64,000 nt of DNA from Promethearchaeota archaeon (GCA_018238625.1 JABCSY010000006.1:1-64000); one strand, 5' to 3'. Positions 28,842 to 33,315 are shown, numbered from the stretch's first letter. Numbers and translations: made by a program. Notes: generated by a model from the letters alone, not told the origin.

Positions 28842-30044
28842 TTGAGGATTATGAGACTAGAACAAATAGAAAAAGATATGCTTGACGGAAAGCATGGAAA
28901 GTCCGCCCAGAAATCCATGGAAATATTAACCACTTTAGGCGAAATATTTGGTGCTGAATGTATGGTTGATGTTTATGGGGTTCAAATAGCAGGAGTTTCC
29001 TACGCTAATCTTGGAGAAGCGGGGTTGGAATTCTTGAACGAAATGGCAGAGGATGGAAAGGTCAGGGTTTTAACTACTTTAAATCCCGCTGGAATGGATC
29101 GCGAAAATTGGCGAGCGTTAGGGATAGACGAAGAATTTTTTAAAAATCAGAATCGAGCTATAGATGCTTTTGCAAAAATGGGAATAATTACGACGTGTTC
29201 TTGTACACCTTATTTAATTGGAAACGCACCCCATTATGGACAGCACATTGCTTGGGCCGAAAGTAGCGCTGTTTGTTATTCCAACTCTGTTATTGGAGCT
29301 CGAACGAATCGAGAGGGAGGACCAAGCGCTCTAGCAGCGGCTATAACCGGTAAGACGCCTAAATACGGCTATCATTTGGAAAAGAATCGTCATGGCCAAG
29401 TCTTGTTTAAGATAAACGCTTCAGTCAAGGGTACTGATGAGTTTGGCGTGTTGGGAAAATTTATTGGCGATAAACTAGTTGAAAATGGAAAAAAAATCCC
29501 TTATATTGCGGGAATTCCTTCTGCTACCGTTGAAGAACTTAAGTCCTTTTGCGCTTCAGTCGCTACCTATGGTGGAACGGCATTATTCCACATGGAAGGA
29601 ATTACTCCTGAGTACAATAAGTACGCTAAACCAAGTGAAATTGTCATCGAAATCAATCAGGACGATTTAGATAAAACTCGTGCTGAGCTTATTGACGACG
29701 ATCTTGAGATAGATTTTGTAAGTCTAGGTTGTCCTCACGCTTCAATTCACGAAATAGCGGAAATTGCGAAATTGTTAGAGGGAAAAAATGTAAAGAAAGA
29801 ATTTTGGATTACTACGGCACGACCTACAAAAAGGATCGCAGACGAAGCCGGTTATTCTAAAATTATTGAAGAAGCTGGAGCAAAATTTGCGGCAGACACC
29901 TGTTGCGTCGTAGCTCCAATTAAAGGTCGCTTCAAGGGAATTATGGTCGATTCAGCAAAGGCGTGTTATTACGGCCGCGCAAAAAATAAATTTAAAGTAA
30001 AAATTGGTTCAATAGAACAATGCGTTGAGGAGGCGATTAAATGA
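28842..30044 (+). CDS. Aconitase X large subunit, probable phosphomevalonate dehydratase large subunit
   Basis: CSCTPY, AWAESSA, GARTNREGGP, LGCPHAS, DTCCVV. Confidence 0.9.
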   Translation: MRIMRLEQIEKDMLDGKHGKSAQKSMEILTTLGEIFGAECMVDVYGVQIAGVSYANLGEAGLEFLNEMAEDGKVRVLTTLNPAGMDRENWRALGIDEEFFKNQNRAIDAFAKMGIITTCSCTPYLIGNAPHYGQHIAWAESSAVCYSNSVIGARTNREGGPSALAAAITGKTPKYGYHLEKNRHGQVLFKINASVKGTDEFGVLGKFIGDKLVENGKKIPYIAGIPSATVEELKSFCASVATYGGTALFHMEGITPEYNKYAKPSEIVIEINQDDLDKTRAELIDDDLEIDFVSLGCPHASIHEIAEIAKLLEGKNVKKEFWITTARPTKRIADEAGYSKIIEEAGAKFAADTCCVVAPIKGRFKGIMVDSAKACYYGRAKNKFKVKIGSIEQCVEEAIK

Positions 30045-30430
30045 AGCTAGAAGGACGGAAAATTTATAAAGGAATTGCGAAAGCAGAAGCGATAGTAACT
30101 AAAGATGGGATCTCATTTTATGGTGGCGTAGATCCTGACACCGGTATAGTTGTTGAGGTTGGGCACGATCTTGAAGGACAATCAATAACCGGAAAAGTGC
30201 TAGTCTTTCCTACTGGTAAAGGCTCGACTGTAGGGTCGTACACGATGTATAGGATGAAAAAGAACAACAAGGCTCCAGCAGCAATCGTAAACGAAGAGAT
30301 CGATACTATAATAGCAGTGGGTTGTATAATTAGTGAAATTCCATGCGTAGATAAAATTGATATTAAAAATATTAAGACTGGGCAAAAATTAATTGTAAAT
30401 GGTTCAGAAGGTACTGTGGAGGTGAAATAA
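30041..30430 (+). CDS. Aconitase X swivel (DUF126) subunit, phosphomevalonate dehydratase small subunit
   Basis: ISFYGGVDPDTG, GKGSTVGSY; overlaps the large-subunit stop. Confidence 0.9.
   Translation: MKLEGRKIYKGIAKAEAIVTKDGISFYGGVDPDTGIVVEVGHDLEGQSITGKVLVFPTGKGSTVGSYTMYRMKKNNKAPAAIVNEEIDTIIAVGCIISEIPCVDKIDIKNIKTGQKLIVNGSEGTVEVK
30418..30425 (+). promoter_or_regulatory. Shine-Dalgarno GGAGGTGA, 5 nt upstream of an ACG codon that opens the mevalonate kinase frame
   Basis: GGAGGTGA-AATAA-ACG read directly. Confidence 0.6.
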
Positions 30431-31397
30431 ACGGGAACTGGAAAAGGATACGGTAAGACCATTCTCTTTGGCGAAATTTACTTCTCATTTCGGTAGTAGA
30501 CGCAATCATTTTGTAGTTTATGGTCTTCCCGCTATTGCTTCGGCTTTAGGTACCTATACAACCGCAGATGTTAAAGTTGTTGAAGGGCAAAATTGGACTG
30601 TTGACGATCAGAGACCCGCTACACCGGGTTATAAAAAAAAGAAATACGATGAAGCTATGCAATCAATTAGAAATGTATTGGAACTTTTAAAAATAGATAC
30701 AGATAGTCAAAAACTTGAAATAACTTTTACCGGAGATTTATTTGCTGCGAGTGGAGTTGGAGCTTCTGCTGCTCAATGCACATCTCTTACTCGTGCACTC
30801 AACGATTGCTTTAATCTAAAATTAGACGATGAAAAGATAAACGAGGCTGCGTACGAAGGAGAAAAAGCTTATCACGGAACCCCTTCTGGTATTGACAACA
30901 CGGCTTCGACTTACGGTGGTTTGATTTGGTTTGTGAAAAATTTAAGTGGTGGAAAAAATACGATGGACTTCCTTCAATCGCCAAAAAAGATGCCCTTAGT
31001 AATCGCAAATTCAGGAATAACGGCTTCAACAACGGAAGTAGTTGCTGATGTTCGACGTTTAAAGGAAGCTAATTCAGAAGAATTTGAGAAGATACTAAAC
31101 GAATATAAGACTCTATCAGAAAAAGCAAAAAAAGCCTTGCTTGAAGGTGATATTGCCATTATAGGTAAATTAATGAATCAAAACCACGAATTACTTCAAA
31201 AAATCTCAGTTTCAGGAGAAATAAACGATAAATTAGTGGAGATAGCACTAAAAAATGGAGCGGTTGGAGCTAAAATGACGGGAACTGGTCGGGGAGGTTT
31301 AGTAATCGCTTTAGCAGAAAATGAAGAAATGCAAGAATTTATCGCCAAGGCTATCGAAAAAGAAGGCTATGCCGCCTGGAGAACAATGATAGGATGA
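30431..31397 (+). CDS. mvk: Mevalonate kinase, split gene: join(30431..30475,30507..31397), 311 aa
   Basis: Exon 1 (ACG)GTGKGYGKTILFGE joins HFVVYGLPAIA to give the GHMP GK.ILFGEH motif. Also SGVGASAA, HGTPSGIDN, GAKMTGTGRGG. Confidence 0.88.
30476..30506 (+). other. Putative 31-nt BHB-type intron in mvk
   Basis: GGCG AA^A TTTACT-loop-AGTAGA CGCA AT^C; removal restores both frame and motif. Confidence 0.8.
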
Positions 31398-31410: not shown

Positions 31411-33315
31411 TTGAAAAGTAGTAATGAAATATTTCTGTTAAAATTGGGTGGAAGTTTATTAACGGATAAAAATATTCCTTTTTCTATCCGAACAGAAGTT
31501 GTAAATAGCGCAATTCAACAAATTATAGATGCTAATAAAAAATTGATCTTAATCCATGGAGGAGGTTCCTTTGGACATCCGATCGCTAAAAAATATGGTA
31601 TTTCTCAAGGAATCGATATTTCTATTAAAAATCAGATATTTGGGCTAACTAAAACGCACGAAGCGATGATTAAATTCAATTCGCAAATAATTGAAGGATT
31701 TTTGGAAAAAAAATATCCAGCTCTTTCCATTCAACCTTCTAGTATTTTTATCAAACATTTAAACGAGATTTCTTTTGAATCTATCGAGCCAATTGAAACT
31801 TCGCTTGATCTTGGAGTTCTACCCGTTTTATATGGAGACATTATTCTTAATAAAGAAGGCAATTTTTCAATAATTTCTGGAGATCGCATAATTTTGGAAT
31901 TGTGTAAAAAATTGAATAAGTATAGCATTTCTAAAGTTATTTTTGCTATTGAAAAAGATGGAATTTTTGTTGAAAGTATTGAAAATGATAAAAAAATCAT
32001 AAAATTAGCCTCAGAAATTAGTCTTGATGAGTTAGATAAAATTAAATTAGCCAATTTAGGAAATAAGATTGATGTTACGGGAAGTATTAGAGGAAAAATA
32101 CAGGCTATTAAAGAAATTTGTAGATTAAATATTCCGGTTCAAGTTATAAACGGTCTGACGGATGGTAATATTTTAAAGGCCTTAAGCAGTCAAAAATTAA
32201 AATGTACGAGCATTAGTGGAATTCACGACGAAAAAAGGTTATCAGAGATTTACATGAGAAAGATAGAACATCTCAAGATACCAATCACATCTAATGTCCA
32301 ACACATAAAAAATTATTTTGACGATATAAAATTAATTCATCATTCGCTTCCGGAAGTAGAACTAAATGATATTGACATCTCAACAATGTTTTTTAATAAA
32401 AAAATTTCTGCTCCAATTTGTATTTCCGCTATAACCGGTGGCCATCCAATCTCTAAAGCAATAAACAGAATTTTAGCTAAAGCCGCAGAAGAAGAAAACA
32501 TCATAATGAGCGTAGGAAGCCAACGCATAGGCTTGGAAGATCTCTCTACCATTGAGTCTTTTGAGGTTGTTCGCGAAGTTGCGCCTAACATTCCGATAAT
32601 TGGAAACATAGGAATCGGCCAAATAAATTCTTCCACCTTTAAAAAAGAAGATTTTATCGAATGTATTGAAATGGTAAAAGCAGATGTAATGGCTATTCAT
32701 TTTAATGCTTTACACGAATTGGTCCAAAGCAACGGGAATATTTCCTACAAAAATTTCTTAGAAAAATTTCAAAAATTTCGAAAAGAAATTAACATTCCAA
32801 TCATCGCAAAAGAAGTGGGAACTGGCTTCAATAAGGACTTAGCCTTGAGTCTTGATTCGCTAGGATTCGATGGATTTGATGTCGGAGGCACTGGAGGTAC
32901 AAGTTTTGCTGCAATTGAATCTCACCGCGATAATTTTAGTTTTGAAAAATATACGAGAAGACTCGCAGATTCTTTTAGAGAATGGGGTATCCCCACACCT
33001 CTAACCATTCTTTATGTAAGAGAAGTTACTAAAAAATTGATTATAGCCACTGGTGGACTAAGGAATGGAATAGATATTGCTAAAAGCATCGCATTAGGTG
33101 CTGATATCGGAGGATTTGCTTATAAATTTCTATTATCCGCTTGGAAAGATTACAACAACAACACTTTTAATCATACAATTAAAGAAATTAAAACATTGAA
33201 AGACGAGTTGCGTTCTTCCTTATGGTTAACGAACGTAACAAACTTAAAAAAACTTAAGGGCAATAAGGACAAGCGAGTTCTGCTTGGAGAACTCTATCAA
33301 TGGGTAAATCAATAG
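31411..33315 (+). CDS. Fusion of isopentenyl phosphate kinase and type 2 IPP isomerase (IPK-Fni)
   Basis: N-terminal LKLGGSLLTDK, IHGGGSFGH, SGD, DVTG. C-terminal RKIEH, SAITGG, VGSQR, HFNALHE, KEVGTG, GGTSF, TGGLRNG. Confidence 0.9.
   Translation: MKSSNEIFLLKLGGSLLTDKNIPFSIRTEVVNSAIQQIIDANKKLILIHGGGSFGHPIAKKYGISQGIDISIKNQIFGLTKTHEAMIKFNSQIIEGFLEKKYPALSIQPSSIFIKHLNEISFESIEPIETSLDLGVLPVLYGDIILNKEGNFSIISGDRIILELCKKLNKYSISKVIFAIEKDGIFVESIENDKKIIKLASEISLDELDKIKLANLGNKIDVTGSIRGKIQAIKEICRLNIPVQVINGLTDGNILKALSSQKLKCTSISGIHDEKRLSEIYMRKIEHLKIPITSNVQHIKNYFDDIKLIHHSLPEVELNDIDISTMFFNKKISAPICISAITGGHPISKAINRILAKAAEEENIIMSVGSQRIGLEDLSTIESFEVVREVAPNIPIIGNIGIGQINSSTFKKEDFIECIEMVKADVMAIHFNALHELVQSNGNISYKNFLEKFQKFRKEINIPIIAKEVGTGFNKDLALSLDSLGFDGFDVGGTGGTSFAAIESHRDNFSFEKYTRRLADSFREWGIPTPLTILYVREVTKKLIIATGGLRNGIDIAKSIALGADIGGFAYKFLLSAWKDYNNNTFNHTIKEIKTLKDELRSSLWLTNVTNLKKLKGNKDKRVLLGELYQWVNQ

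Follow-up and report, generated by a model that had tools for sequence, protein, structure and literature searches.

A 31-nucleotide insert in the mevalonate kinase gene of Asgard archaea is a probable bulge-helix-bulge-type mRNA intron

The mevalonate kinase gene (mvk) was analyzed in a stretch of 64,000 nucleotides (nt) from Promethearchaeota archaeon (GCA_018238625.1, JABCSY010000006.1:1-64000), and this whole stretch is called the window below. The gene was found to be interrupted by an insert of 31 nt at positions 30476-30506. The window reads ...ATT CTC TTT GGC GAA / ATTTACTTCTCATTTCGGTAGTAGACGCAAT / CAT TTT GTA..., where the slashes mark the two ends of the insert. The insert separates GKTILFGE from HFVVYG, and the motif GKxILFGEH becomes contiguous only when the 31 nt are removed, as it is in 37 intron-less genomes of the same family; the peptide predicted from the joined exons is ...TILFGE-HFVVYGLPAIASALGTYTTADVK. 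A model's reading of the DNA made before any database search (the sequence-only reading) had described exon ends, an insert and helices at this place, and all of these were present and correctly located, including TTTACT (30477-30482) facing AGTAGA (30495-30500) and GGCG facing CGCA with three pairs and a G.A. On the evidence given below, 30476-30506 is very probably a bulge-helix-bulge (BHB)-type mRNA intron, spliced by the endonuclease EndA and the ligase RtcB. The features of the locus are collected in Table 1.

Table 1. Positions in the window of the interrupted mvk gene, the predicted elements of the splicing motif and the neighbouring genes
Feature	Coordinates	Strand	Basis or remark
Aconitase-X-like large subunit gene	28842-30044	+	Open reading frame (ORF) calling and profile match
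DUF126 small subunit gene	30041-30430	+	ORF calling and profile match
Shine-Dalgarno-like GGAGGTGA	30418-30425	+	5 nt upstream of the ACG start position; kept in relatives
mvk exon 1, 15 codons, translates to TGTGKGYGKTILFGE	30431-30475	+	Uninterrupted orthologues run the same 15 codons into HFVVYG
Predicted exon-exon clamp, 5' half AAGACCAT, codons K-T-I	30455-30462	+	96.3% of cells paired
Predicted central helix H, 5' strand GGCG (exon 1: Gly codon and first base of Glu codon)	30470-30473	+	Columns 25-28 pair with 56-59
Predicted 5' bulge AA/A, boundary after base 2	30474-30476	+	Boundary from uninterrupted alleles
Putative 31-nt BHB-type intron (ATTTAC...CGCAAT)	30476-30506	+	Carries TAG in the exon-1 frame
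Predicted intron stem h', 5' arm	30477-30484	+	Columns 32-39 pair with 48-55
Predicted intron stem h', 3' arm	30493-30500	+	8 pairs; 84.2% of cells paired; 4 of 8 pairs changed on both sides
Predicted central helix H, 3' strand CGCA (intron)	30501-30504	+	3 pairs and G.A in the window
Predicted 3' bulge or loop AU/C, boundary after base 2	30505-30507	+	Boundary from uninterrupted alleles
mvk exon 2, 296 codons then stop, begins HFVVYGLPAIAS	30507-31397	+	Translation; TIGR00549 match
Predicted exon-exon clamp, 3' half ATGGTCTT, codons Y-G-L	30520-30527	+	Pairs with 30455-30462
Isopentenyl phosphate kinase / type 2 isopentenyl diphosphate isomerase fusion, 634 amino acids (aa), single ORF	31411-33315	+	Downstream of mvk

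The source is a metagenome-assembled genome of 4.29 Mb in 201 contigs, 97.94% complete with an estimated contamination of 7.59%, and the G+C content in the window is about 28-37%. Promethearchaeota and Promethearchaeia are the names used in the NCBI taxonomy for the Asgard phylum and its Lokiarchaeia-type class, and the host is an Asgard archaeon of this class (Promethearchaeia/Lokiarchaeia).

Exon 2 alone matched the profile TIGR00549 with 214.6 bits (cut-off 163.05) over profile positions 11-276, and the uninterrupted orthologue at locus L039 matched it with 239.8 bits over positions 3-276. Since the first match begins at position 11 and the second at position 3, the insert lies between profile positions 10 and 11, within the GKxILFGEH motif. 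A profile search of the whole genome showed that only one gene passes the TIGR00549 cut-off. The next-best match was a GHMP kinase of 314 aa on another contig (C97:3649-4479; L163 1414-2358, minus strand), which reached 137.5 bits; mevalonate kinase models were its best NCBIfam matches, all below their cut-offs, and where mvk has GKxILFGEH its N-terminal motif is PGRICLMGDK, which is of the sugar-kinase type. The sequence-only reading had left room for another mvk in the genome, and none was found above the cut-off. Another GHMP kinase adjoins this paralogue (C97:1628-2620).

The distribution of the insert was investigated by a family search, in which mvk was found in 93 of 135 genomes, and all N-terminal regions were then compared. 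An insert was present at the identical codon boundary in 55 of the 93 genomes (31 nt in 50, 30 nt in four and 28 nt in one), the gene was uninterrupted (GKTILFGE-HFVVYG) in 37, and in one it was cut by a contig end. Among 80 metagenome contigs, 22 carried the insert, 56 did not, and the N-terminus was missing in two. All five genome relatives with at least 90% nt identity carried the insert in their DNA, as did all seven metagenome contigs with at least 90% aa identity, and the nearest intron-less DNA was at most 84.5% identical to the window. It is this comparison across genomes, and not the window sequence alone, that places the insert beyond chance.

Four sequencing runs were also compared with the window, including a DNA study (X6) and the RNA runs X20, X18 and X17. 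An assembly or sequencing artefact might be suspected in a metagenome-assembled genome with the contamination given above. However, the same-site insert was seen in 55 assemblies and in 22 metagenome contigs, and contigs of the independent study X6 span both junctions of the window's allele, insert included, at 99-100% identity; together these data exclude an assembly artefact as well as a recent inactivating mutation, and the probability we leave to an error of this kind is negligible.

It could also be proposed that the insert inactivates mvk, which would then be a pseudogene, and that another kinase or pathway supplies phosphomevalonate. The unspliced gene is indeed unreadable, and the GHMP kinase on C97 has mevalonate kinase models as its best matches, although with a score below the cut-off and with the PGRICLMGDK motif instead of GKxILFGEH. 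However, 55 species hold the insert together with intact exons, and a stop inside the profile match was found in none of them. Variation in the exons was concentrated at third codon positions (9 of 12 variable columns in one exon and 9 of 11 in the other), 29 of the 31 intron columns were variable, and the GKGYGKTILFGE peptide was conserved across the family. The size and structure of the insert were likewise held, with exactly 31 nt in 50 of the 55 genomes and with compensatory changes. Both mvk exons appear from these patterns to be under coding constraint in the insert-bearing genomes, and we consider inactivation of the gene extremely unlikely.

The reading frames across the insert were then compared. 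In each of the 55 inserts the exon-1 frame was ended by a stop lying 3-21 nt inside, which means that an unspliced mRNA would yield only a peptide of 16-22 residues. The exon-2 frame was also closed within the insert in 23 of the 55, and all three frames were closed in seven. One way past such stops would be for the insert to stay in the mRNA while the ribosome frameshifts across it or bypasses it by a "hop", as in phage T4 gene 60, where the take-off codon matches the landing codon and the bypass site includes a stem-loop as well as an in-frame stop. An insert of 31 nt shifts the frame by +1, the exon-2 frame stays open across it in the window (a 309-aa ORF starting at TTG 30468), and the insert holds a stem-loop and an in-frame stop, like bypass sites. 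However, the take-off codon was GAA or GAG and the last three bases of the insert were AAT, TAT, TAA, AAA, TAG, TAC or CAA, so that a matching landing codon was found in 0 of 55. Lengths of 28 and 30 nt also occur, a frameshift product would place about 10 variable residues inside the invariant GE/H motif, and the covariation described below fits the geometry of EndA. The closed frames and the lack of a matching landing codon indicate that neither frameshifting nor bypass can be the general solution, and we regard both as very unlikely.

Mechanical ORF calling, with which public gene callers probably agree, gives the 309-aa ORF from TTG 30468, and translation of mevalonate kinase might begin internally, within or behind the insert, to give an enzyme that works without the GKTILFGE strand. 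In relatives, however, the frame upstream of the histidine closes at once, and open frames of only 296-304 aa are left in many genomes. The stops in the exon-2 frame of 23 of the 55 inserts also speak against an internal start, as do the coding constraint on the exon-1 peptide in all 55 and the match of uninterrupted orthologues to the profile from position 3 onwards. An enzyme shortened in this manner is highly improbable. A self-splicing group I or group II intron was ruled out by the size of 28-31 nt, as a ribozyme core takes hundreds of nt, and by the absence of any Rfam match at E <= 1 within 30200-30800.

Because the boundaries of the insert were fixed by the intron-less alleles and are independent of any fold, their position is a test of BHB geometry. 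The boundaries 30475/30476 and 30506/30507 coincided with the canonical cut after bulge base 2, around a 4-bp helix. The fold was analyzed in an alignment (A1) of 55 intron-bearing sequences, 54 of them distinct. In the predicted structure 89.1% of the cells were paired, compared with 37.5-44.3% when the partners were slid. Changes on both sides were found in five pairs (24 cells), and the covariation score was reached by 0 of 500 shuffles, a statistic that overstates significance since the sequences are related and the counts are not independent. Column pair 27-57, in which the third base of the Gly codon faces the intron, was C-G in 49 sequences, U-A in four and U-G in one, and was never unpaired.

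The exon parts of the structure were compared between the two kinds of allele. The clamp had all eight pairs in 41 of the 55 alleles with the intron but in just one of the 47 without it, and the mean number of pairs out of eight was 7.7 in the former (n = 55) and 5.2 in the latter (n = 47). The Gly codon was GGC in 50 intron alleles and GGT in five, whereas the intron-less alleles used GGA (20), GGT (11), GGC (9) and GGG (7). As the clamp pairing and this codon choice are restricted to intron alleles, selection for RNA structure appears to act on synonymous sites only in alleles that have the insert. The sequence-only reading had proposed a 31-nt, frame-breaking intron with a relaxed BHB or bulge-helix-loop (BHL) motif between GE and H, and this proposal was supported by the same-site polymorphism (55 genomes with the insert against 37 without), by the compensatory changes and by the synonymous selection on the clamp.

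RNA was the next source of evidence. A metatranscriptome contig of 1592 nt (X20, depth 51.5) covered 30041-30475 and 30507-31397 and skipped exactly 30476-30506. With 116 differences to the window in 1326 positions, an identity of about 91%, the contig comes from a relative. With the insert present in all DNA relatives at or above 90% identity, and with no intron-less DNA above 84.5%, the skip is likelier to be spliced mRNA. The joined exons, which the sequence-only reading had suggested looking for in RNA, were thus seen as an exact 31-nt skip in one metatranscriptome contig of a relative. The joined form was not seen in RNA runs X18 and X17, which has no bearing on an absence of splicing.

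The genome was also searched for the enzymes of splicing. It encodes two EndA paralogues of 200 and 201 aa (PF01974, 97.7 and 73.8 bits), located around C58:7294-7518 and C7:25627-25875. Paralogue 1 aligned best with PDB chain 3p1z_B (E = 8.2e-35), which we take to be the catalytic subunit of the Aeropyrum pernix EndA; the paralogue retains the catalytic His, and its K-P-R is aligned with K44-P45-R46 of the specificity loop of 3p1z_B. Paralogue 2 aligned best with 1a79 and has Ser at the position of the 1a79 His, under the catalytic triad numbering that we assume for 1a79. By these alignments the pair would fit an (alpha-beta)2 enzyme. RtcB is encoded in the genome as well (556.8 bits). The splicing that the sequence-only reading had called obligatory accords with the exon-1-frame stop in 55 of 55 inserts, the single mvk above the cut-off and the presence of the EndA pair and RtcB. 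We infer that splicing is obligatory for the only clear mvk of this genome, and hence for isoprenoid lipid synthesis.

The Crenarchaea-specific loop of EndA gives the enzyme a broad substrate specificity that includes cleavage of BHL introns, with Lys44 essential, according to the passages of the paper that deal with this loop (PMC3241643). In the relevant part of a preprint on Asgard archaea, two full-length EndA paralogues are given for 44 of 60 Asgard genomes, with heavily interrupted tRNA genes (preprint 10.64898/2026.10.13.758758). In the genome analyzed here ARAGORN detected only 19 tRNA genes despite the completeness of 97.94%, and 11 of them have introns of 5-35 nt. It is probable that many others are masked by introns that are multiple or non-canonical, as the preprint describes for Asgard archaea.

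Several results weigh against splicing of this kind, in addition to the relatedness of the aligned sequences. In the predicted motif, the fourth and outermost central pair is G.A in the window and in 33 of the 54 distinct sequences (G.U in 20 and G-C in one). Beside the 3' site, a single A-U pair (30508 with 30469) is all that is left of the outer exon helix h, and the distances to the 8-bp clamp are 7 and 12 nt. Since helix h is lacking next to the 3' site, the motif would be a relaxed one, BHL or HBh'-like, and not a strict hBHBh' (outer helix, bulge, central helix, bulge, intron stem). The BHB structure was not predicted by RNAalifold on the alignment. The single-sequence fold of 91 nt had z = -1.86, and its minimum free energy (MFE) structure differs from the BHB fold; the BHB model had a mean of -8.3 kcal/mol compared with -20.7 for the MFE, and in none of the 55 sequences was its gap to the MFE 3 kcal/mol or less. 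In an alternative hairpin, GAAAU/AUUUC (30473-30477 with 30487-30491), the 5' splice site is bound to the intron-stem loop. This hairpin is mutually exclusive with the BHB fold and belongs to the MFE fold of the window; among the 54 distinct sequences it was 84.3% paired, compared with at most 57.3% when slid, with some covariation (column pair 31-43, AU in 21 and UA in seven).

The RNA and the rest of the genome provided further points of this sort. The RNA evidence is limited to relatives. Intron losses are frequent in the family, so that contig X20 could stem from an intron-less strain or from carried-over DNA. A contig of the RNA library X18 is an unspliced form like locus L008, either precursor RNA or carried-over DNA. 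The genome was scanned for similar structures of 18-120 nt in which 3 of the 4 central pairs are formed, two or more of them G-C, next to an intron stem of 6 bp, and which restore a reading frame. There were 14,358 structures, and the frame was rescued in 945 with the true geometry compared with 988-1014 in six decoy geometries. Frame-rescuing motifs of this kind arise readily by chance in the genome. Against all this, the BHB fold is retained on comparative grounds, as a predicted structure, despite the thermodynamic folding.

The same scan gave no excess of further mRNA introns over the decoys at any exon-length threshold, and with its low power this shows nothing either way. Its 31 short candidates were inspected and look like gene boundaries or off-frame ORFs. 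A second copy of the intron was not found in the genome by blastn-short of the intron core (self-match 42/42; other matches 12-17 nt), and cbf5, a gene with an intron in other archaea, is uninterrupted in the source genome.

From the observed sequence, polymorphism, covariation, blocked frames and enzyme genes, we infer the following course of cleavage, ligation and circle formation. In the polycistronic transcript, GGCG of the exon would pair with CGCA of the intron to form the 4-bp central helix, and the intron would fold into the adjoining 8-bp stem. A distal 8-bp exon-exon helix, AAGACCAU/AUGGUCUU, would keep both exons together. A two-subunit EndA of the (alpha-beta)2 type would then cut after base 2 of each 3-nt bulge, with a canonical 5' site and a 3' site whose surroundings are relaxed and loop-like (BHL or HBh' type). 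RtcB would join the exons, restoring ...GKTILFGE-HFVVYG..., and would probably circularise the 31-mer. If the insert were not removed, translation would stop inside it after 16-22 residues and no mevalonate kinase would be made.

The history of the intron was investigated using a quick maximum-likelihood tree of exon-2 proteins with 100 rows, from which loci L036 and L101 were excluded as too short; it is a gene tree, and its root depends on the outgroup. The outgroups from other Asgard archaea were intron-less, the earliest-branching clades of the family were all intron-bearing, and the intron-less clades were scattered. Parsimony on this tree required 17 changes, and the well-supported branches force at least four. 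Judged by the tree, a single gain at the base of the family, followed by repeated precise loss, would be the most likely history. The cbf5 intron shows the same pattern, and reverse transcription of its spliced mRNA has been proposed as the route of loss (PMC2738675). Some loci with an mvk that falls inside this Asgard family were titled "Nanopelagicaceae bacterium", "Bathyarchaeota archaeon" or "Nitrosopumilales archaeon" by their submitters (L124, L126, L130-L132 and L141). Four of them, L130-L132 and L141, were placed in the family by the exon-2 tree, and L124 is identical to L012; such assembly titles are probably taxonomic mislabels.

The gene sits within a mevalonate-pathway operon. Upstream of it lies the pair of aconitase-X-like and DUF126 genes, which we take to be the phosphomevalonate dehydratase of the archaeal mevalonate pathway. 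In the downstream fusion ORF, residues 9-268 matched NF040647 (7e-60, kinase) and residues 283-618 matched TIGR02151 (1.4e-104, isomerase). The large and small aconitase-X-like subunit genes overlap by 4 nt (30041-30044), and at its start position mvk has the codon ACG, which immediately follows the TAA of the preceding gene (30428-30433). This overlap and this abutment of stop and start suggest that the genes of the operon are tightly coupled in translation. Across 102 distinct loci, the codon at the start position was ATG in 57, TTG in 27, ACG in 10, GTG in five, CTG in one and another codon in two. ACG is common to the window's clade and to intron-less relatives (L039 and L041), and is therefore not an error; near-cognate initiation, or termination and reinitiation, would be implied at this codon.

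A further step would be to regard the splicing as regulated. Splicing may act as a checkpoint on membrane-lipid synthesis in these archaeal relatives of eukaryotes, which we hold to be unlikely. Gating of this sort is conceivable because the competing hairpin is conserved and the intron lies 45 nt behind a translationally coupled start. The alternative hairpin would hide the 5' splice site and compete both with the BHB fold and with ribosomes that come in from the coupled gene upstream, and the spliced fraction, set by the activity of EndA and RtcB or by uncoupling of transcription and translation, would tune the output of mevalonate kinase.

tRNA-type introns in protein-coding genes are extremely rare. 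According to the passage on mRNA introns in a 2023 review (PMC10485636), at least two archaeal genes, cbf5 and HVO_1309, are spliced by the endonuclease, and more will probably be found. In a full-text literature search, with subscription journals and supplements outside its scope, no paper was found that deals with an intron of the mevalonate kinase gene or with a protein-coding gene of Asgard archaea that has a BHB intron. Within the literature searched, mvk would be the third host gene, the first in Asgard archaea and the first in which the intron lies inside the catalytic motif of an essential metabolic enzyme. The 55 intron-bearing and 37 intron-less orthologues of one family are a natural experiment, which can show how synonymous codons let exon sequence become part of a splicing motif and how such introns are lost with precision. 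Gene callers will mis-annotate such an mvk as truncated or frameshifted, and the mevalonate pathway could be wrongly scored as broken.

In the eukaryotic XBP1/HAC1 system, the endonuclease IRE1 cuts a twin stem-loop motif of the mRNA as a regulated stress switch. As is proposed for mvk, these mRNAs have a very short, frame-shifting intron that is handled by a protein endonuclease and a tRNA-type ligase (IRE1 with RtcB) and not by the spliceosome; the intron of XBP1 is described as short and non-spliceosomal in a passage of PMC5435141. The endonuclease and the RNA motif are different, and the two systems do not belong to one family. If the checkpoint considered above were real, mvk would be a functional analogue of the splicing of XBP1/HAC1 by IRE1 and RtcB, and control by protein-catalysed mRNA splicing might already have been in use in Asgard archaea.

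HVO_1309 of Haloferax volcanii, cut by an alpha2 EndA, was the second mRNA of archaea to be reported as a substrate of EndA splicing (one passage of the review PMC10485636). Compared through that passage, it differs from mvk in gene, lineage and enzyme type.

The mvk intron resembles the relaxed (BHL and HBh') tRNA introns cut by EndA of the (alpha-beta)2 and epsilon2 types, with a 4-bp helix, 3-nt bulges and a cut after base 2, and its size is within the range of the tRNA introns that ARAGORN detected in the same genome (5-35 nt). The host EndA also has the loop with the equivalent of Lys44, which in the passages on this loop goes with broad specificity and BHL cleavage (PMC3241643, PMC5829648). 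In contrast to tRNA introns, the mvk intron lies in an mRNA, synonymous codon choice would have to encode the exon half of the motif, and a distant clamp would take the place of the outer exon helix.

The closest comparison is with the cbf5 pre-mRNA intron of Crenarchaeota (Aeropyrum and Sulfolobus; Desulfurococcales and Sulfolobales). cbf5 encodes an RNA pseudouridine synthase of Crenarchaeota, whereas mvk encodes a core enzyme of the lipid pathway in Asgard archaea, and the mvk intron differs in lying 15 codons into the gene, inside the catalytic motif. Splicing of cbf5 was shown by experiment, whereas that of mvk is deduced from comparison. In other respects the two are alike. As the cbf5 intron is described in the pertinent parts of two papers, both are short inserts in a protein gene with a relaxed BHB-like structure, in hosts with an (alpha-beta)2-type endonuclease, and both are restricted to a lineage with precise secondary losses and need to be removed for the gene to function (PMC2738675, PMC10485636).

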